A stretch of DNA of 63,780 bases, the filler included, from Caldilineae bacterium (GTDB lineage: Bacteria > Chloroflexota > Anaerolineae > DTLA01), in assembly GCA_037446815.1 (NCBI GenBank). It is 7 parts of 7 records of this genome, joined end to end, with 100 filler letters (N's around TTAATTAATTAA, not from the genome) between each part and the next. Parts side by side here need not be neighbours in the genome. Positions count along the whole stretch, not along the records: positions 9,378 to 18,628 come from JBBIHX010000117.1; 6 more parts are not named here. One strand, written 5' to 3'. The notes under the pieces are model-generated. The model saw only the letters and a list, made by a program, of their open reading frames with translations, did no database searches and was not told the DNA's origin. The position numbers and the translations under genes are program-made. Every line of letters starts with the position of its first letter. Within the stretch, counting starts at the first letter, position 1. Shown in pieces: positions 9,378 through 18,628 of the stretch.

Positions 9378-9422
9378 GGGAGGCGGCGTGCGGGGCAGAC
9401 CAACACAAGATGAAACCAACTC
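9378..9422. mobile_element. Right end of MITE-like element at contig start
   Basis: GGGAGGCGGCGTGCGGGGCAGACCAACACAAGATGAAACCAACTC matches the right ends of the copies at 1-213 and 58232-58382. Confidence 0.7.
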
Positions 9423-9558
9423 CGGTCTTGCTATCCACACGCGGGAGGAGACGGCTCGCGAATGCGGCGGGGGCGCAGCAATGACAGCCCGTAGGCCGCA
9501 CGCGGCGACCTACGGGCCTGCCAAAAGCTGACCGCTGACGGCTTTCCGCTGTCTGCCC

Positions 9559-11028
9559 CTACCACCGATACCGCACGGTGTAGGTGATCTTCGCCTCGCC
9601 ATCCTTGGGCACGTTCACGCGGAACTCCACGCTGCTGGAGTCCAGTTTGGTGTACTCGTGGCTCTTGGCCGTGATCTCCCACTCGCTCCAGCGGAACAGA
9701 TGCTCCACCACCCGCACCTCAACGGCCTCGCTCTTGTGGTTGCGGATGCTGATCTCAAAACTCTCTTCTATCGTCCGCTCGCCCAGTTTCTTGAAATCCG
9801 TCTGCTTGCGCTCGCCCACGATGTCAAAGGCGTCGCCCAGATACAGGCGCACGCGCTCATCCCTGGGCGTGTGGTCAATCTGGTCCTCGCCGACAAACTC
9901 GGCCCCGCCGCCCGTGTCCTCTTTGTACACGCGCACGCGGCCCTTGGGCAGCGGCACGCCCAACCCGTCCGCCTCGGAATTCTTGAATTCCACCAGCACC
10001 ATGACCTTCTTGTTGCTGGTGGGGCCGTAGGTGGGATCGGTGATGGGGCCGTAGGAGTACCAGTAGCCGCTCCCCAGGCCATCGTACACGAAGATCTTCT
10101 CGGCTTTCACGCCTTCCGCGCCGACGAACTCAATCTGCTTGGTCTGCTGATCCTTGACGGTTACGGGCCGCTGGATTTCATACAGGTGGTACTCAAAGAA
10201 CTCCCGCTCGGCCACCTGTTCGGGGGTGAGGGCAGCGCCCGCCTTGCGCGCCATGTCGTAGGCGGTCAGTTCCTGGGGAGGCTGCACGCGGTGGATGTCG
10301 CCGGCGATGAGTTTCAGCCGCGCATCCTTATACGTGGCGCCGCTGCGATTGTCCACCGTAACCCAGCCGTTCAGCCCCAGCGAGGCGTCGTCGGCGGCCA
10401 GAACCACCACGTAGTCGGCGGACCACGTGATGCCGGCGGTCAGGTACGTTACCTCCACGTCATGGGCGCCGGCCTTGGCCGCGTTCACCTGCCACAGGAG
10501 CGACGGCTTGGTGATAAGCCCCTCCGGCAGCGCGGGGAACTGGAACTCCCGCACCTGGTTCGCCTTGACGACGGTTACCTTGCCGTCCGAAGCCTGAAGG
10601 ATGATGTCATCGGCCCCGCTGAGCAGTTTGCCCGTGTAGACGCTGCCATCCTCTGTAACGAGCGTGATTTGCTCATCCAGGTACTTGCGCAGGAGTTTGG
10701 CCGAGCCTACCACATCGTACTCGTAGTTCTGCTCCAGCACCGCGGTCCCCTCGGGGTCGGTCAGCGAGCGGAAGTGAACGGACGTGGGGTCAATGCCCGA
10801 GGCCACGTCGGAGAAGCGGACGAAATTCAGGCCCTTCTCCAGCGTCATCGGACGGTGATCCTTGACCAGCCCCAGGTCGGAGTTGTACACGGTCAACTCC
10901 ACGCCCGGCGACTCGGCATGGGCGGGCGTGGGCGACAACCGCGCGACCAGATTGCTGCCGGCGGAACACGCGGCCAAAGCCAGCGTGGCCACCACAACCA
11001 GGATGCGAATCCCTCGTGCGTGTCTCAT
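9559..11028 (-). CDS. DUF4139-domain lipoprotein
   Basis: Lipobox LALAAC; VELTVYN..LGLVKD, LEQNYEYD, FFEYHLY and PLPKGRVRVY motifs typical of DUF4139/DUF4140 proteins; GGAGGG RBS. Confidence 0.85.
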   Translation of the reverse strand: MRHARGIRILVVVATLALAACSAGSNLVARLSPTPAHAESPGVELTVYNSDLGLVKDHRPMTLEKGLNFVRFSDVASGIDPTSVHFRSLTDPEGTAVLEQNYEYDVVGSAKLLRKYLDEQITLVTEDGSVYTGKLLSGADDIILQASDGKVTVVKANQVREFQFPALPEGLITKPSLLWQVNAAKAGAHDVEVTYLTAGITWSADYVVVLAADDASLGLNGWVTVDNRSGATYKDARLKLIAGDIHRVQPPQELTAYDMARKAGAALTPEQVAEREFFEYHLYEIQRPVTVKDQQTKQIEFVGAEGVKAEKIFVYDGLGSGYWYSYGPITDPTYGPTSNKKVMVLVEFKNSEADGLGVPLPKGRVRVYKEDTGGGAEFVGEDQIDHTPRDERVRLYLGDAFDIVGERKQTDFKKLGERTIEESFEISIRNHKSEAVEVRVVEHLFRWSEWEITAKSHEYTKLDSSSVEFRVNVPKDGEAKITYTVRYRW

Positions 11029-11241
11029 ATTCCCTCCTAAAGGTAAGTGTAGTTTGGAACTGTGGATAGCCTTCCCTTCCGTTGTTGCGGATAGCCTGCG
11101 GCTCGTATCGGGCCGCAAAGAGCGCAAAGTTTCCTTGGATTCCTCCTTAGGCTGATTTCTCTGCGTTCTCTGTGCCTCTGCGGTGAATTCCGCTGCCCTT
11201 TGCCAACAACACTCCAAGGAGATGAGCGGACTGTGCGAGTT

Positions 11242-11270
11242 TCAGACGCCTGCCGGTGGGCATTTGTTCC
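11242..11270 (-). promoter_or_regulatory. Putative ECF-sigma promoter
   Basis: GGAAC-N17-CGTCTGA on minus strand upstream of the DUF4139 gene. Confidence 0.45.
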
Positions 11271-11392
11271 GTGCAAGCGCCGCGCGGCCTCCGCGCCGCC
11301 CGACCCCATCGCGCGCCCGTTGCGCAGGGGGCGAGAGTTGCAACGCCCAACTTCGCCGCGACGCTTGACCGCGCGTCCGGAGGACGGCCGCT

Positions 11393-11515
11393 CTGTCATG
11401 CTGAGCCGAAGGCGATACGCCCTCGCCCTTCGGGAGAGGGCTGGGGTGAGGGGCGAGATTCTTCGCTCTCCGCCGCTCAGAATGACAGTTCATGCGAACA
11501 AACTTGGGGACATCC
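11393..11515. repeat. Degenerate composite repeat: CGTC-type hairpin with an embedded CCCTC/GAGGG module and an eroded MITE end
   Basis: CTGTCATGCTGAGC...GCTCAGAATGACAG enclosing CCCTCGCCCTTCGGGAGAGGGCTGGGGTGAGGG (also at 53646-53678). Confidence 0.7.
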
Positions 11516-11528
11516 CATCGCGCCCGAC

Positions 11529-11556
11529 TTGACAAAGCGGCGCCAGGGTGTATGCT
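11529..11556 (+). promoter_or_regulatory. sigma70 promoter, probably giving a leaderless arsR mRNA
   Basis: TTGACA-N16-TATGCT; ATG 11564 lies 7 nt after the -10 with no RBS. Confidence 0.55.
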
Positions 11557-11563
11557 AATGTGC

Positions 11564-11941
11564 ATGAACGAAGACAAGCACACAGACGGATACGCCGCTA
11601 TGGCGAAACTGCACAAGGCGTTGTCTCACCCGGCGCGACTGCGGATCCTGGAGATGCTGGGGCAGTGCGGCGAAGCGTGCGTGTGCCACCTGACCGCGGC
11701 CCTGGGCCAGCGCCAACCCTACGTCTCGCAACAACTGGCCATCCTGCGCGAGGCCAACCTCATCGCCGAGCGCCGCGAGGGTACGCTCGTGTACTACCGG
11801 CTGACCGACGAGCACGTGCCAGACGTTATCGCCGCGAGCCGCAAATGGGTGGCCGGCAGGCAGGGTGAGTCGGGGCAATTCCCCACGGTGCCGGAGGGGC
11901 CCCTCCCGGGATGTTCCTGCCCCGCGTGCACCCGAGAGTAA
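11564..11941 (+). CDS. ArsR/SmtB-family transcriptional regulator
   Basis: KALSHPARLRIL, EACVCHL, SQQLAILR, VYYRL; C-terminal CSCPAC metal-binding tail. Confidence 0.92.
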   Translation: MNEDKHTDGYAAMAKLHKALSHPARLRILEMLGQCGEACVCHLTAALGQRQPYVSQQLAILREANLIAERREGTLVYYRLTDEHVPDVIAASRKWVAGRQGESGQFPTVPEGPLPGCSCPACTRE

Positions 11942-11965
11942 TCCTCTTCCGCCGTCCCTCTCCGA

Positions 11966-12012
11966 CATTCAGAATAATGCATATTTGACAATCGGGTCTT
12001 GCCAGGTATACT
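11966..12012 (+). promoter_or_regulatory. sigma70 promoter with possible ArsR operator
   Basis: TTGACA(11985)-N16-TATACT(12007); AT-rich imperfect dyad ATTCA-N6-TGCAT immediately upstream. Confidence 0.55.
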
Positions 12013-12084
12013 TGCGTGTGGGAAGACCGCCGGCACATCAGCCTTTCTGAGCCACACCGACGCACTGCGAAGGGAGGACGCACA

Positions 12085-12612
12085 ATGTTGTGCAAGGAAT
12101 ACGAATTGGAGGTCATCTCGCCACCCTGCGACCCGGGTTCGGAGCGCTGGAGCGCCTTCGCGCGGCTGCGCGAGGATATCAGCGACGTCATGCCCTATCT
12201 CAACACCGTCTGGAAGAACGCCATCTACGACCACGAGAACCACATCCTGACCGTGGTGCGCGGAGGCCGGCGCTACACCCTTCGCTCCCATGAGATCGCC
12301 ATCAGCAATCTGGAGGACCGCCAGGAGGCCCAGCGCATCGCCGAGCGCATCCTGGACGAGGTCAACCGAGTCTGGGACCGGCGGCGCGAGATCGTGCCCT
12401 CCTACGAGAAGCGGCATCAGCCCACCGTGATGGAAATCTACAAACTCCTGCCGGGCGGCAACTGCAAGCAGTGCGGCGACCCCACGTGTTTCGTATTCGC
12501 GAGCAAATTGGTGGCGGGCACGACAGACCTGACACGGTGCGTCCGCCTCTACGAAGCGGAATTCGCCGACAGGAGAGCGCGCCTGGAGGAAATCCTGGGC
12601 CTGGGCGAATGA
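12085..12612 (+). CDS. (Fe-S)-binding protein (COG4871-like, C-terminal FeS domain)
   Basis: LLPGGNCKQCGDPTCFVFA...C motif; GGAGG RBS. Confidence 0.85.
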   Translation: MLCKEYELEVISPPCDPGSERWSAFARLREDISDVMPYLNTVWKNAIYDHENHILTVVRGGRRYTLRSHEIAISNLEDRQEAQRIAERILDEVNRVWDRRREIVPSYEKRHQPTVMEIYKLLPGGNCKQCGDPTCFVFASKLVAGTTDLTRCVRLYEAEFADRRARLEEILGLGE

Positions 12613-12636
12613 GTCGCGCGATGCAGGAGGTAGGCG

Positions 12637-13530
12637 GTGTTTGAACGGGTGCTATTCCCCACAGACTTCTCCGCCTACGCAAACGCGGTGTTCGCGTGCC
12701 TGCCCGACCTGAAATCGGCGGGCATGCGCCATGTGCACTTGCTCGCCGTCATCGCCACGTCCCAGGTGCCGCTGGGCCACACGGCTTGGAACGAGGACTC
12801 GCTGGCCCGCGTCAAGTGGAGCATGGAGGAGCACCTGCACATCGCGTCCATGGCGCTGGAGGGGCAGGGCTTTTCCACCAGCACCGAGGTCGTGTACGGC
12901 AACCCCGCGCGGGAAATCGTGCGCGTTGCGCAAGAAGAACGGGTAGATATGATCGTCATGGGCGCGCAGGGCCAGAGCGCGTTCCAGGAAATCCTCCTGG
13001 GCAACACCGCCTTTGATGTCCTGCGCATGTCGCCCGTGCCTGTGCTTATTGAGAAGTTTGAGGTTGTGCGGGAACTGGGAAAGGTGGAGTGCCGGCGCGT
13101 GTGCGGCGCGACGTTTCAGCGGGTGCTCCACCCCACAGACTTCTCAGAGTGCGCGCGTGCTGCTTTCAACATCGTCAAGCGGCTCAAGGGCGCGGGAACC
13201 GAAGAGGTGCTCCTGGCGCATGTGCAGGACGAGCGCGTCATGCGCCGGCGCAGCCCTGAGCAACTGGAGGAGTTTGACCGCGAAGACGTGGCCCGCCTGG
13301 AGCGCATGGCCCGCGACCTGGCGCTCTACCGCCTGCCCGCCAAGGTCATCCTCAGGCACGGCCTGCCCCATGTGGAGACGCTTAAGGTGGCCGACGAAGA
13401 GGACGCCTCGCTCATCGTCTTGAGCGTATGCGGGCGCAACGTGATGAACGAAATCCTGGTGGGAAGCACGTTTGAGAAGATCGTGCGCACCAGCCGCAGG
13501 CCCGTATTGGCCGTCCATTGTGAGAGGTAA
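12637..13530 (+). CDS. Tandem-domain universal stress protein
   Basis: Two USP domains (FERVLFPTDFS...GAQG...LLGN; RVLHPTDFS...LVGS). Confidence 0.92.
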   Translation: MFERVLFPTDFSAYANAVFACLPDLKSAGMRHVHLLAVIATSQVPLGHTAWNEDSLARVKWSMEEHLHIASMALEGQGFSTSTEVVYGNPAREIVRVAQEERVDMIVMGAQGQSAFQEILLGNTAFDVLRMSPVPVLIEKFEVVRELGKVECRRVCGATFQRVLHPTDFSECARAAFNIVKRLKGAGTEEVLLAHVQDERVMRRRSPEQLEEFDREDVARLERMARDLALYRLPAKVILRHGLPHVETLKVADEEDASLIVLSVCGRNVMNEILVGSTFEKIVRTSRRPVLAVHCER

Positions 13531-13531
13531 A

Positions 13532-13987
13532 ATGGCAGACACGCAGCACCGCAAACGGGTACTGGTCATCTGCACCGGCAACTCGGCTCGGTCGCAGATG
13601 GCCGAAGCGCTGCTGCGACACCTGGGCGGGGATCGCCTGGAGGTCTTCAGCGCCGGTTCCGCCCCCGCGCCTGCCGTACACCCCCTCGCCGTGCGCGCCA
13701 TGGCCGAGATGGGCCTGGACATCTCCGCCCACCGCCCGAAACCGCTGGCCGACTTCCTCGGCCAACCCTTTGACTATGTCATCGCCGTCTGCAGCAAAGC
13801 GGCCGAGGCGTGCCCCTTCTTCCCAGGCCCGGCCGAGCGCATTCACTGGTTCTACGATGACCCCGCGGCCGTGGAGGGCAGCGAAGCCGAGCGCATGGCC
13901 GCCTTCCGCGCCGTCCGCGACGACCTGAAGGTTCGCATCGCCGAATGGCTGACATCCCTGCCGAGGCGAGCCGATGCCCCCCTATGA
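13532..13987 (+). CDS. arsC: Thioredoxin-coupled arsenate reductase (LMW-PTP fold)
   Basis: CTGNSARSQMAE P-loop, resolving pair VCSKAAEACP, DDPA. Confidence 0.88.
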   Translation: MADTQHRKRVLVICTGNSARSQMAEALLRHLGGDRLEVFSAGSAPAPAVHPLAVRAMAEMGLDISAHRPKPLADFLGQPFDYVIAVCSKAAEACPFFPGPAERIHWFYDDPAAVEGSEAERMAAFRAVRDDLKVRIAEWLTSLPRRADAPL

Positions 13988-14033
13988 CAGCACCCGTGCG
14001 CCCAGCCTCAAACCTCATGAGAACGGAGAAGCC

Positions 14034-15944
14034 ATGACACAACCCAAACCCATTGCCCGCCTGCTCACCCTGATTGCCATCCTGGCCCTGGCCCTAGTGC
14101 CGACGCTGGCGCACGCCCAGCAGCCGGTCGTTCGCGCCGTGCTGTTCTACTCGGACACGTGCCCCATCTGCCACACCGTTCTGGAGCAGGTTCTGCCGCC
14201 CCTCCAGGCGCAGTACGGCAGCCAACTGGAAATCGCCAAGGTGGAGATTACGCCCCCCGCCAACTACGAACTCCTCCTGCGCATGGAGCAGACGCACGGC
14301 GTCCCGCCGGAGAAAGGCGTTGTGCCCGAACTGTTCATCGGCGACCGCGTGCTTTTCGGAGCCGATGAGATTCGCGACAACCTGCCGTCGCTCATCCAAT
14401 CCTACGCGGCGCAGGGCGGCGTGGACTGGCCCGCGGGCTACGGCGAGCAGACGGGGCCTATCACATGGCCCCCCACCGGCGCCCGGCCCACGCCCAAAGC
14501 GTGCCACATCTGCGACGAGGGCGACCCCGTCGTGAAGATGTACTTCTTCTGGAGCAGCCTCTGCCCCGAATGCCACCGCGTGCAGGATGAGGTGCTCAAG
14601 CCCTTGCAGCAGCGGTACGACCGCCAGTTGGTGGTGGACGCGCGCGACGTAGAGAAGTCTCCCGCCGACTACGACCTGCTGACGGCGCTGGAGCGGCAGT
14701 TCGGCACCGGCGAAGGCGCGTTCCCCGTCATCTTCATCGGCGACCACGTGCTGCACGGCGAGCAGGCCGCCCGCGAGCAATTGGCCGCGCTGGTGGAGTA
14801 CTACATGAACGAGGGCGGCGTGGACTTCCCGAAACTCACCGGCCCCGCCGCCCCATCCGGCAATCCGACCGCCGGGCAGCCTGCCATCCATCTGGCCTAC
14901 TTCTTCCAGGTCGGCTGCCACGAATGCGACCGCGCCCAATATGACCTCAAGTACCTGCAGAGCAAGTATCCGCAGTTGCAGATTCACGAGTACGACATCC
15001 GTGAGCACGCCGCCCTGGCCGAGTGGCTGGGCGAACGCAACCGCGTGCCCCTGAACAAGCGCCTCACCGCTCCCGCCGCCTTCGTCGGCTCCGATTTCCT
15101 GCTGGGCGACGGCATCAACGTGCAGGCGCTAGAGGCCATCTTGCAGAAGTACGTCGCGACGGGCAGCGAAGCCTACTGGCAGGAACAGGAGGACGCCGCC
15201 CAGGCCGGCGAGAGCATCCTGAGCCGCTTCCGCTCGTTCGGCGCGCTCACGGTTGTGGCCGCCGGCCTGGTGGACGGACTGAACCCCTGCGCCTTCGCCA
15301 CCATCGTCTTCTTCATCTCCTACCTGGCCTTCACCGGACGCAAAGGCCGCGACATCCTGCTGGTGGGCGGCATGTTCGCGCTGGGCGTGTTCCTGGCATA
15401 CCTGGGCGTTGGCGTGGGCCTACTCAAGTTCCTGGCAAGCCTGCCGTTCCTGCCGGCCATCAGCCGCTACCTGTACGGCTTCACGGCGGCCCTGTGCCTG
15501 CTGCTCGCTGTGGGCAGCCTCTACGATTGGTACCAGGCGCGGCGTGGGCGACCGGAGGCGATGAAACTCAAACTGCCCACGCGGATGCGCCGCTGGGTCA
15601 ACCGCGTCATCCGCGAGGGAGCCAGCGCGCGGGCCATCGCGGGCGTCGCATTCATCACCGGCGCGGTTGTGTCCCTGATAGAGTTGGCGTGCACCGGCCA
15701 GGTGTATCTGCCCACCATCCTGTTCGTGCTCGGCGTGCCGGCCCTGCGGGTGCGCGCGCTGACCTATCTCGTCGTGTACAACCTGGCGTTCGTCCTGCCC
15801 CTCATCATCGTGTTCCTCACGGCCTACTGGGGCACGACATCGGAGCGCCTGGGGCAGTTCATCAGCCGCCGCGCCGGCGCCATCAAACTGGCCACGGCGG
15901 GGCTATTCGCCCTGCTCGCCGCCTGGATGATCACGTTCCTGTAG
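14034..15944 (+). CDS. Secreted triple thioredoxin/glutaredoxin-like domains fused to a CcdA/DsbD-like membrane domain
   Basis: Signal peptide; FYSDTCPIC, FWSSLCPEC and FFQVGCHEC plus a linker CHIC; TM domain with GLVDGLNPCAF and ELACTGQVY cysteines. Confidence 0.85.
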   Translation: MTQPKPIARLLTLIAILALALVPTLAHAQQPVVRAVLFYSDTCPICHTVLEQVLPPLQAQYGSQLEIAKVEITPPANYELLLRMEQTHGVPPEKGVVPELFIGDRVLFGADEIRDNLPSLIQSYAAQGGVDWPAGYGEQTGPITWPPTGARPTPKACHICDEGDPVVKMYFFWSSLCPECHRVQDEVLKPLQQRYDRQLVVDARDVEKSPADYDLLTALERQFGTGEGAFPVIFIGDHVLHGEQAAREQLAALVEYYMNEGGVDFPKLTGPAAPSGNPTAGQPAIHLAYFFQVGCHECDRAQYDLKYLQSKYPQLQIHEYDIREHAALAEWLGERNRVPLNKRLTAPAAFVGSDFLLGDGINVQALEAILQKYVATGSEAYWQEQEDAAQAGESILSRFRSFGALTVVAAGLVDGLNPCAFATIVFFISYLAFTGRKGRDILLVGGMFALGVFLAYLGVGVGLLKFLASLPFLPAISRYLYGFTAALCLLLAVGSLYDWYQARRGRPEAMKLKLPTRMRRWVNRVIREGASARAIAGVAFITGAVVSLIELACTGQVYLPTILFVLGVPALRVRALTYLVVYNLAFVLPLIIVFLTAYWGTTSERLGQFISRRAGAIKLATAGLFALLAAWMITFL

Positions 15945-16129
15945 CAGGCATGGGGACGCGGATGGGCCTCGCCCCTCCTGCAGGGACACCGCGGCGACTC
16001 CCCTGCTGAGGCGCGAAGGATCTCCTTCCCCAATCGTGTAGATTCGTGTTATCCGTGGATACACTCCAGCGCACGCCTCGCCTGCGGCCTTCGGCTGCCC
16101 CAATGACAGAAGCAGGGCGGCATGACAAT

Positions 16130-16487
16130 GATTCGGTTCCAAACTGTGTTGGTGAACCGTAGGCGCACTCTCTTCGCGTGTCATTGCGAGCGAAGCGAAG
16201 CCATCCCACGCTGCGGCGATTGCTTCGGGCGTTCCGCGCCCTCGCAATGACGGCCACCCGCAGACACTGGAACCGAATGCGGGGCGCCATCGCGTAGGGG
16301 CGACCGATCGGTCGCCCCTACTCTCCCCAATCCCCGCAATCCGTGCCATCCGTGGATGCACCCCAACCCTGTTCGCGTGGATTCGCGTTATTGACGGTTG
16401 CACTCCTCCGAAGTTGCCTCGTGTCGTGCGGCATTGTGCGCGACGCCAAGCCGCGTGAACTGCACCAACACTTTTTGGAACCGAATG
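16130..16487. mobile_element. Long-form MITE (358 bp) with 8-bp target-site duplication
   Basis: Termini GATTCGGTTCCAAACTGTGTTGG / CCAACACTTTTTGGAACCGAATG; ATGACAAT at 16122-16129 and 16488-16495; ~200 bp of interior near-identical to 46546-46902. Confidence 0.85.
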
Positions 16488-16636
16488 ATGACAATCGCGA
16501 TTTTGGTACAAGCGCGCATTCCGTAGTATTATCAATCGCACCAATCGGAGCCGACCGATGCGCAGGTGGGGTGGGAGTCGCCCGCGTGTATTGGCCCAGA
16601 TTCAACTCCCATGTGCGCCCGAGAGTGAGGTGAAGC

Positions 16637-17713
16637 GTGGCGAAGAAACGGAAGAAGAAGCAGACCCCAGGGCAGGCCCCGCGCCCGGCAGAGGCGACGA
16701 CCCAGAAGGGCGAAACGAAGCCAAAGCCCAAGAAGAAGGCAGCCCCCAGCGCGGGCATCAAACGCTGGATCGCGCCTGTGGTGCTGGCGCTCGTCGTGGT
16801 GGCGGCCCTCATCACCGCGCAGGCGCTCATCCGCCGCAACGCCGCGCGTCCCACCGGCCCCTGGACCCTGACCATCCTGCACACCACCGATGTGGAGGGC
16901 TACGTAGACCCCTGCGGCTGACGGCCCCCCAAGGGGGGTGTGGCCCGTCGGGCCACCGCCATCAAGGACTACCGCGCCAAGACGCCCTATCTCCTCGTCC
17001 TGGACGCGGGCGACGCGCTCTTCGGCCAGCCGGTCTCCGACATCAGCCAGGGCAAGGCGCTCACCGAGGCGATGAACCTGATGAAGTACGACGCCATGGC
17101 CATCGGCGAGCGGGATTTGGCCCACTTTCCGGAGTTGCTGGATCGTTCCCGCGAGGCCAAGTTTGCCTTCCTGTCGGCCAACCTGGTGTACGCCAGCACG
17201 GGCAAGCCAGTCTTCACGCCCTACGTCGTGCAGAACGTGGGCGGGCGCAAGGTTGCCATCATCGGCCTGACACCGGCCGACGACACGTTCAAATCCTTCG
17301 TCCCATCGTCCGCCGACATCACGGCGAAAGATCCCGTGGAGACCGCCCGTGAGTACGTCGCCAAGGCCCGCGCCGAGAAGGTGGACGCCGTCGTCATCCT
17401 GTCGCACCTGGGCAACGTCATGGATCGCAAGATCGCAACCGAGGTGAACGGCATCACGGCCATCGTGGGCGGGCACTCCTACGACCTGCTCCAAGAGACG
17501 CTGCAACTGAACAACACGGTCATCGGGCAGGCAGGGTACGGCGGCGAATGGCTGGGCGAGATCACCGTGGACTTTGACGGCGAGGGCAACGTGGTCTCGG
17601 CCAAAGCCGGCGTCATCCCGCTCTCTGCCGACTATGCCGACGATCCCGAACTGGCCGCGTTGGCCGCCCGCTACAACGCCGCCCTGCCCCCGACGCCAAC
17701 GCTCCAGCCCTAG
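16637..17713 (+). CDS. UshA-like (metallophosphoesterase-fold) selenoprotein, Sec at codon 95 (TGA 16919-16921), 358 aa
   Basis: ORFs 16637-16921 and 16940-17713 are in one frame, separated only by TGA in LTILHTTDVEGYVDPCG-U-RPPKGGVARRAT; DAGD, FLSANL, LSHLG and GGHS motifs continue the same fold; hairpin after TGA; yqeB next. Confidence 0.88.
16922..16960 (+). promoter_or_regulatory. Candidate bacterial SECIS element
   Basis: GGT-GTGGCCC-GTC-GGGCCAC-C-GCC stem-loop; the G-starting apical loop begins 25 nt after UGA. Confidence 0.7.
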
Positions 17714-17732
17714 CGGGCAAGGAGGCTTTGCC

Positions 17733-18542
17733 GTGGCCGTGTTGGGCAGAATCATCACCGTCGTGGTGAAGGGAGGCGGGGATTTGGCGTCCGGCGTCGC
17801 CTGGCGTCTGTGGAACTGCGGGTTCCACGTTGTCGTTACCGAAATCCCCGCCCCCACCGTCATTCGCCGCAAGGTTGCCTTCGCCGCGGCCGTATGGGAG
17901 GGCGAGACGGTGGTAGATGGCGTGCGCGCCCGTAGAGTAGAAGGCGCAGAGGGCGTTCGGGCCGCCTGGGATGAGGGCGTTCTGCCCGTCATCGTGGACC
18001 CCGAAGCCACCATTATCCGTGCGCTGAAGCCCGACGTAGTGGTAGACGCCATCCTGGCCAAGCGCAACCTGGGCACGCGCATCACCGATGCTCCCCTCGT
18101 CATCGGGCTTGGGCCGGGGTTTACCGCCGGAGAGGATGTGCACGCGGTGATAGAGACCATGCGCGGCCATACCCTGGGGCGCGTGATTTGGCGCGGCCAG
18201 GCGCTGCCCAACACGGGCGTCCCGGGCGAAGTGGGCGGATATGCCGAGCAGCGCGTGGTGCGCGCCCCGTGCGCGGGGACGTTCCGGGCCGTCCGCGATA
18301 TCGGCGACATGGTGAACGAGGGCGACGTGGTTGCCTACGTGGACGCCGAGCCGGTGCGCGTGCGGCTGAAGGGCGTCCTGCGCGGGCTGCTCCGCGATGG
18401 GATGGCCGTGCACCCCAACATGAAGGTTGGCGACGTGGACCCCCGCGCCGCCCGCGAGCACTGCTTCACCATCTCGGACAAGGCGCTGGCCATCGCTGGC
18501 GGCGTGCTGGAAGCCATTCTCCACGCCCTGCGCGAGGGCTGA
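17733..18542 (+). CDS. yqeB: Selenium-dependent molybdenum hydroxylase system protein YqeB
   Basis: KGGGDLASGVA, PTVIRRKVAF, VVDAILAKRNLGT, IETMRGHTLG, KVGDVDPR, ISDKALAIAGGVLEA; AAGGAGG RBS. Confidence 0.93.
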   Translation: MAVLGRIITVVVKGGGDLASGVAWRLWNCGFHVVVTEIPAPTVIRRKVAFAAAVWEGETVVDGVRARRVEGAEGVRAAWDEGVLPVIVDPEATIIRALKPDVVVDAILAKRNLGTRITDAPLVIGLGPGFTAGEDVHAVIETMRGHTLGRVIWRGQALPNTGVPGEVGGYAEQRVVRAPCAGTFRAVRDIGDMVNEGDVVAYVDAEPVRVRLKGVLRGLLRDGMAVHPNMKVGDVDPRAAREHCFTISDKALAIAGGVLEAILHALREG

Positions 18543-18628
18543 CATCCCCCGTCCCTGGCGGCGCAGCGAAGGAATCCCCAGGGGGTGTATTCACGGATGA
18601 CACGGATGGCGCGGGATTGCGCATGTAG

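Follow-up and report, generated by a model that had tools for sequence, protein, structure and literature searches.

The locus considered here raises two questions: whether an open reading frame (ORF) broken by a stop codon is one gene or two and, if it is one, what its product does. It lies in a 63,780-nucleotide stretch of DNA from Caldilineae bacterium (assembly GCA_037446815.1), referred to below as the window, which consists of joined contigs; the real genomic context of the locus is contig C117 (window positions 9378–18628), from a genome that is 93.6% complete and in 265 contigs. At 16637–17713 on the plus strand the sequence reads as a single frame of 358 codons, from GTG at 16637 to TAG at 17711–17713, with GAGGTGA preceding the start at 16627–16633. 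Its sole interruption is an in-frame TGA at 16919–16921, within D-P-C-G-U, where U denotes selenocysteine (Sec); around the TGA the frame reads ...HTTDVEGYVDPCG-U-RPPKGGVARRAT..., and over a longer span ...LHTTDVEGYVDPCG-U-RPPKGGVARRAT.... We conclude that this is one intact gene and not two broken genes, that the TGA very probably encodes Sec, and that the product is reasonably likely to be an extracytoplasmic Cys/Sec redox enzyme on a nucleotidase fold whose metal site is dead, with the Sec read through a selenocysteine insertion sequence (SECIS).

An ORF listing under translation table 11 cuts the frame into pieces of 94 amino acids (16637–16921) and 257 amino acids (16940–17713, from a GTG at 16940). 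This is the split that the first-pass annotation of this DNA had held responsible for hiding the gene, and the single TGA that it had reported in this frame is likewise borne out by the sequence. Contigs from other metagenome runs cover the codon and have no listed difference at 16919–16921 (X1 is about 98% identical, X2 and X3 about 96–97%, and two of the runs look like one dataset filed twice); the TGA is therefore not an assembly error.

The in-frame TGA and its downstream hairpin

Whether the genome could decode UGA as Sec had been left as a point to confirm, and selA (587.5 bits), selB (358.3), selD (372.8) and tRNA-Sec (69.9) were all found above their cut-offs, the tRNA having the anticodon tca as assigned by ARAGORN, i.e. 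tRNA-Sec(UCA). Elsewhere on C117 TGA is an ordinary stop, terminating yqeB, arsC and the Fe-S gene. Separately, selD (G000:C13:14206–15138, minus strand, locus L008) also codes for a selenoprotein, its own in-frame TGA falling in ...SCAGUAGKMGP....

A search with the read-through protein, in which stops were counted, covered 401 genomes from this phylum and gave matches at E ≤1e-20 in 63 of them (a tally that includes G038, flagged as unpublished, which supports no other result here). The nine best matches are the query, a second copy in the same genome (C64:10931–11875) and seven sequences in other genomes; each has exactly one TGA in a short frame of 338–420 codons, with C-G-U at the site in six and C-x-x-U in three. 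The next-best matches (E 1.5e-46 or worse) are stop-free proteins of 520–680 amino acids and are canonical nucleotidases, with DxH, GD, GNH and GHSH present and no Cys at the site. A TGA in the G056:C224 match was considered as a Sec codon and rejected, being upstream of the start of that canonical nucleotidase.

An unbiased scan of species-representative genomes, with a DNA pattern in which the site could be TGA, TGC or TGT, gave 119 or more matches, from which 80 loci were retrieved. The codon is TGA in 77 and TGC in three (L084, L101 and L103), which answers the earlier question of what homologues carry at this position, and protein conservation runs across the TGA in all 77. All 72 complete short forms have Sec, and no short Cys form occurs among the 80 loci. 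In an alignment of 76 members Sec is present in every one; 73 have it in the aligned column and the three CxxU forms have it one residue further on, and P92, C93, R104, R105 and Y151 are invariant. In public records, 19 matches at E ≤4e-103 are all 226–257 amino acids long, cover 63–72% of the query and start after the TGA. The scan also turned up PCGU genes at L123 and L134 that apparently end 33 and 163 codons past the Sec codon and may be frameshifts or pseudogenes. Tandem or near-tandem UshA-like duplicates are frequent (L067, L073, L089, L090, L097, L100, L104, L118, L121, L122 and L137); four of these loci (L067, L073, L090 and L118), labelled Alphaproteobacteria or 'bacterium', are very divergent, at 21–22% identity, with YSGQFKGH replacing HTNDxxG.

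A hairpin, GUGGCCC-GUC-GGGCCAC, is located at 16940–16956, 18 nucleotides downstream of the TGA; it is 17 nucleotides long, with a 7-bp stem and a GUC loop, and is encoded by x-A-R-R-A-T codons (V-A-R-R-A-T in the window protein). The false GTG start of the 257-amino-acid piece sits inside its stem. The folding energy of the post-TGA sequence, calculated for the single sequence, is no better than that of shuffles (z = -0.09), so that the hairpin taken alone is no more than chance would give. Across 78 homologous sequences, the helix 22–28/32–38 is paired in 92.9% of cells, and none of 500 shuffles reached the observed covariation score or double-change count; all slid controls were lower. Stem pairs 24–36 and 27–33 have 14 double changes each. 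In two pairs, both partners are third codon positions at which synonymous change is possible: the first is C:G in 63 sequences, U:A in 14 and U:G in one, and the second G:C in 59, A:U in seven, U:A in four, C:G in two, G:U in two and U:G in one, and unpaired in three.

Bacterial SECIS (bSECIS) elements are stem-loops shortly downstream of UGA with a G in the apical loop. The hairpin at 16940–16956 is a stem-loop near the UGA, has the loop G and is conserved among homologues; the only loops seen are GGC, GUC, GGA and GUA, in which the first base is always G and the second G or U. Among the three Cys forms, each of the two synonymous pairs is kept in one. Comparative sequence evidence thus strongly supports assignment of the hairpin as a bSECIS-type element kept by synonymous compensatory changes, and the SECIS-like hairpin first suggested from this one sequence is now backed by covariation. 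Rfam returned no RNA family at the site, neither at the gathering threshold nor at E up to 1. Another hairpin in the window (C6/G6, 16924–16939) was rejected as a conserved element, with 61.5% of cells paired.

A nucleotidase-type fold and its altered metal site

The Pfam Metallophos profile (PF00149) matched the window protein at 17.1 bits, below its cut-off of 21.5, and a Pfam search found no match to the 5'-nucleotidase C-domain (PF02872) at E up to 1; the frame ends at residue 358, 20 nucleotides before yqeB, and is without CxxCH. An AlphaFold model of residues 62–358, built on the 76-sequence alignment, has a predicted local distance difference test score (pLDDT) of 95 and a predicted template modeling score (pTM) of 0.92, and the first core strand of the fold, encoded upstream of the TGA, is modelled at a pLDDT of about 96. 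Foldseek matched the model to the N-domains of CD73 and Escherichia coli UshA, with TM-scores of about 0.81–0.87, E of about 1e-27 and 24–31% identity. Proteins of this group (5'-nucleotidase/UshA/CD73; COG0737, with PF00149 and PF02872) share with the window protein the N-domain fold, an extracytoplasmic location and the motifs GGxAR, LDAG, MN..YDA, LSAN and PY. The window protein differs from them in having no C-terminal substrate-binding domain, in the replacement of Asn-His by Glu-Arg and of the DxH His by Glu, and in its Cys-Gly-Sec insert-loop.

A computed alignment with CD73 equates DxH with D85-V-E87, GD with G-D126, GNHE with G-E158-R159-D160, the SH His with H257, and GHxN/Q with G-H280-S-Y282, in agreement with the altered ligands (DVE, GERD and GHSY) noted by the first-pass annotation. 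The seven canonical residues (D, H, D, N, H, H, H) are D, E, D, E, R, H and H in the window protein. Retention of the canonical residue among the 76 sequences is 64 for the DxH Asp, two for the DxH His, 28 for the GD Asp, 33 for the SH His, four for the last His, and none for either the Asn or the His of GNHE, which upholds the doubt already expressed about nucleotidase activity. The full canonical set is present in none of the 76, and no sequence has more than four of the seven.

Within the clade of the window protein (11 sequences of at least 68% identity, over 16922–17710; P0003–P0020), D126, E158, R159, D160, H257, H280 and Y/F282 are conserved. Relatives at 43–48% identity have lost the remaining ligands and kept PCGU. 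From these ligand losses, together with the invariant P92, C93, Sec, R104, R105 and Y151, we conclude that dimetal phosphoesterase chemistry has been lost across the family and that the Cys-x-Sec loop is the new feature that its members conserve.

The reference family, cellular location and gene neighbourhood

The best NCBIfam match of the window protein is NF041198 (UshA_like_PCGU), in keeping with the earlier placement in a recognised but functionally uncharacterised UshA-like CxU family, which is tabulated as such in PMC2398784, PMC9312934 and PMC13188914. With 182.8 bits the match is short of the 275-bit cut-off, and it covers model positions 8–269 of 519 only. All 76 short forms match NF041198 (best E 1.5e-62), none appears to reach the cut-off, and copies from no fewer than 72 further species fall below it. 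The scan contained few long PCG(U/C) proteins, namely those from L100 (Sec), L084 and L103 (both Cys), which have four CxxCH motifs each and match Cytochrome_C554 at E of 5e-14 to 5e-18; NF041198 positions 360–518 align to this C554-like region, and the three proteins score 212–263 bits, just below the cut-off. The cytochrome-fused forms adjoin a second cytochrome-bearing paralogue, and their neighbours (the tandem fused paralogue, MatE, a Crp-type regulator, a COX1 fragment and HNH) gave no clue to a substrate.

By these alignments the NF041198 reference family is a ligand-less UshA-like domain joined to a tetrahaem cytochrome c, not to a 5'-nucleotidase C-domain, and the window protein is the UshA-like domain of that family standing alone. 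Both have the P-C-G-U/C motif in the loop that follows the first beta-strand (D-P-C-G-U, residues 91–95, in the window protein) and an N-terminal metallophosphatase-like domain, and the family shares Sec/Cys alternation and, in the long forms found by the scan, metal-ligand loss. In contrast, the window protein has an N-terminal transmembrane anchor and is without the tetrahaem cytochrome c554-like part (model positions of about 360–518), the absence of which accounts for its score below 275 bits. The statement that a C-terminal 5'-nucleotidase domain is absent therefore holds, in that PF02872 is not matched, although the part missing relative to the family's own model is the tetrahaem cytochrome c.

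Two other families deserve comparison. NF049981 (UshA-like selenoprotein family 2, UshA_like_Sel_2) resembles the window protein in being short, at 262 model positions, and is matched weakly by 75 of the 76 short forms (best E 3.7e-24), but the score of the window protein is 46.3 bits where 140 are required, and its motif is CxU in place of CxxU; the CxxU subgroup is also below that cut-off. The second-best NCBIfam match is the SoxB thiosulfohydrolase (TIGR04486; PDB 2wdc), at 128.5 bits, far below the cut-off of 550, with a PDB sequence match at E 7e-18. SoxB is periplasmic and belongs to the same superfamily, and its substrates are sulfur compounds attached to a carrier cysteine; the enzyme is a dimanganese hydrolase with intact ligands. 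A functional analogy between the two would be speculation.

The N-terminus of the window protein has a Lys-rich tail (residues 1–43) and then one hydrophobic helix (residues 44–65, approximately) ahead of the domain, an arrangement from which an outward-facing domain had been proposed. The proposal fares well in the family at large: a hydrophobic N-terminal segment is present in 69 of the 72 complete short forms, with a lipobox-like motif in 47 of these 69, and two of the three without such a segment are cut by the locus edge. Fusions to c-type cytochromes are extracytoplasmic. The anchor and lipoprotein signals and the c-type cytochrome fusions together place the domain outside the cytoplasmic membrane, and we describe the predicted product as a 358-residue type-II membrane-anchored protein with an extracytoplasmic domain.

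The gene order on C117 is DUF4139 (minus strand), ArsR, an Fe-S protein, tandem Usp, an ArsC/low-molecular-weight-phosphatase-type protein, and a secreted protein with three thioredoxin-like domains and a CcdA-like domain (Trx3-CcdA), followed by a 690-nucleotide gap, the selenoprotein gene, yqeB 20 nucleotides further on, and the end of the contig. Trx3-CcdA has 656 amino acids, a signal peptide, Pfam matches to Thioredoxin, Glutaredoxin and Thioredoxin_2, the motifs CPICH, CPECH and CHEC, and, at the C-terminus, a six-helix CcdA/DsbD-like domain in which conserved Cys residues occur in NPC and ELAC motifs; from its sequence it looks like a DsbD analogue. In tblastn searches of the 85 other loci, its orthologues (43–51% identity) are no more than about 3 kb away from the selenoprotein gene in eight, including a CxxU-type locus, and in other Anaerolineae they are usually directly upstream of the PCGU gene. 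The same searches found yqeB, selD and selB near the gene in none of the 85, selA in four loci of one orthologous lineage and arsC in one, and we rejected a general link to these selenium genes as a family-wide clue. Small thioredoxins are nearby in five of the 86 loci and tandem gene copies in about 11. The thiol-relay neighbour alone looks like a family-level association, though a minority one.

The second copy in this genome (G000:C64:10931–11875, minus strand, locus L048) is a lipoprotein-type PCGU selenoprotein, 41% identical to the window protein, with its own TGA and hairpin. It is tail-to-tail with selA (C64:9542–10870), and the same arrangement is found in three other genomes (L060, L102 and L139); a class-V aminotransferase gene is also beside it. 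Within the gap upstream of the gene on C117 (15945–16636) there is a repeat at 16130–16487, with a core of about 150 nucleotides that gives more than 200 blastn high-scoring segment pairs genome-wide and a perfect 14+14 palindrome at 16294–16321. A version of about 355 nucleotides, 92–99% identical, is present on at least six other contigs (C86, C172, C121, C93, C236 and C248), often at contig ends, and the repeat probably causes assembly breaks. Contigs of relatives diverge exactly upstream of 16625. The features of the locus are collected in Table 1.

Table 1. Positions in the window of the selenoprotein gene, its parts and two neighbouring genes.
Feature	Position	Strand	Basis
Complete selenoprotein gene, 358 codons and TAG	16637..17713	+	NF041198 best family match, 182.8 bits; fold model pLDDT 95
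Lys-rich N-terminal tail, residues 1–43, predicted cytoplasmic	16637..16765	+	Sequence; topology by positive-inside rule
Putative signal-anchor transmembrane helix, residues ~44–65, WIAPVVLALVVVAALITAQALI	16766..16831	+	Hydrophobic stretch in sequence
Metallophosphatase-fold domain (5'-nucleotidase N-domain type), degenerate dimetal site	16862..17671	+	Foldseek, CD73 alignment, ligand statistics
P92-C93-G94-U95 motif, probable Sec codon TGA at 16919–16921	16910..16921	+	Alignment of 76 sequences and pattern scan
bSECIS-type hairpin GUGGCCC-GUC-GGGCCAC, over V-A-R-R-A-T codons	16940..16956	+	Covariation
Candidate electron donor: three thioredoxin-like domains and CcdA/DsbD-like membrane domain	13974..15944	+	Pfam
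yqeB (selenium-dependent molybdenum cofactor biosynthesis protein)	17733..18542	+	TIGR03309, 385.7 bits (cut-off 220)

Proposed function and alternative explanations

As a redox enzyme, the protein would work as follows. The SelA/SelB/SelD/tRNA-Sec system very probably reads the UGA as Sec, directed by the hairpin 18 nucleotides downstream, and Cys93-Gly-Sec95 would form the active centre, cycling between a selenolate/thiol and a selenenylsulfide state as it reduces or oxidises an extracellular or periplasmic substrate. In the fused form, the tetrahaem cytochrome c wired to the same domain would supply electrons; in the stand-alone Chloroflexota form, their most likely source would be a thioredoxin relay of the DsbD/CcdA type, like the one encoded at 13974–15944. 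Our best guess for the substrate is either a disulfide or a small inorganic species containing S, Se or As.

Several observations weigh against this proposal. Haems and a thiol relay would deliver electrons by different routes, and the chemistry served may differ between them. In 77 of the 86 loci there is no Trx3-CcdA neighbour, and here the repeat element lies between it and the gene; the other neighbours vary (an ABC ATPase in 14 loci, sugar-metabolism genes, sigma factors). U95 aligns in the computed alignment with a Cys in the N-terminal loop of CD73, a residue that in CD73 forms a purely structural disulfide. A residual metal site may persist in the window protein's clade, in which D126, E158, H257, H280 and Y/F282 are conserved. 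A full-text search of the literature, covering main articles, yielded no functional, architectural, location or biochemical account of the UshA-like CxU family.

The alternative that deserves most attention, although we think it unlikely, is non-catalytic binding of a metal(loid) or chalcogen, in which Cys-Gly-Sec takes up or passes on Se, As, Hg, Cu or a comparable species at the cell surface, for example in Se acquisition or detoxification. The setting of the gene between the ArsR/Fe-S/Usp/ArsC-type/Trx3-CcdA cluster and yqeB would suit such a role, as would the abutment of selA by the C64 paralogue and likewise by three of its orthologues; these contexts are, however, lineage-specific, as the counts in the 85 other loci show, and fusion to a tetrahaem cytochrome favours electron transfer over mere binding. 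A structural role, with a selenenylsulfide replacing the loop disulfide of eukaryotic ecto-5'-nucleotidase in a pseudoenzyme that serves as a binding or scaffold module, would fit both the alignment of U95 with the CD73 loop Cys and the disappearance of the catalytic residues. We consider it improbable: the universal presence of Sec in the complete short forms, with no short Cys form, is hard to square with the cost of Sec insertion, the RNA hairpin is maintained by compensatory synonymous changes, and Sec is retained where CxU has become CxxU in one subgroup.

The protein could still be a metal-dependent hydrolase, at least in the window protein's clade, with Sec in an auxiliary or regulatory role. 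It keeps D85, D126, H257 and H280, E87, E158 and Y282 are potential ligands, and the 11 sequences of at least 68% identity all conserve D126, E158, R159, H257, H280 and Y/F282, but six conserved residues among sequences 68–93% identical are weak evidence. Arg159 stands in place of the catalytic His and Glu in place of the Asn, neither canonical residue being kept in any of the 76 sequences, relatives at 43–48% identity dispense with the remaining ligands while keeping PCGU, and there is no substrate-binding C-domain; a hydrolase seems improbable. That the TGA is a true stop, leaving two genes or a pseudogene, agrees with table-11 callers and public records, which give only the 257-amino-acid downstream piece, but this explanation is effectively refuted by the core strand modelled upstream of the TGA, by conservation across the TGA in 77 loci and Cys codons at the site in three, and by the SECIS covariation together with the full Sec machinery. 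An extracytoplasmic Cys/Sec redox enzyme is the explanation we favour.

The family itself is not new. 'COG0737, UshA-like, CxU' was tabulated in the 2008 Global Ocean Sampling (GOS) selenoproteome paper of Zhang and Gladyshev, with 76 Sec and 92 Cys sequences and one sentence in the Discussion (PMC2398784), and reviews of 2022 and 2026 tabulate COG0737/NF041198 (CxU) together with 'family 2', NF049981 (CxxU) (PMC9312934, PMC13188914). The UshA-like CxU family has thus been known and catalogued since 2008, and the window gene is a stand-alone variant of it that curated models and public annotation have missed. It occurs widely among Anaerolineae and other Chloroflexota, in at least 72 species-level genomes, and annotation systematically splits it in two.

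The cytochrome c fusion of the reference form, the lost phosphoesterase site and the export of the domain together give a testable hypothesis, that of an extracytoplasmic Sec-based redox enzyme. On a broader and distinctly tentative view, PCGU proteins may constitute an unrecognised class of extracytoplasmic Se-dependent oxidoreductases that evolved from a 5'-nucleotidase through loss of its dimetal site and gain of a Cys-x-Sec centre, that come in two wirings, a fused tetrahaem cytochrome c or, for the stand-alone form, a DsbD/CcdA-thioredoxin relay, and act on small inorganic S, Se or As compounds or on extracellular disulfides. The short form is common in Chloroflexota, falls under the NCBIfam cut-off and is cut at a false GTG in public records, and selenoproteome counts for Chloroflexota are consequently underestimated.

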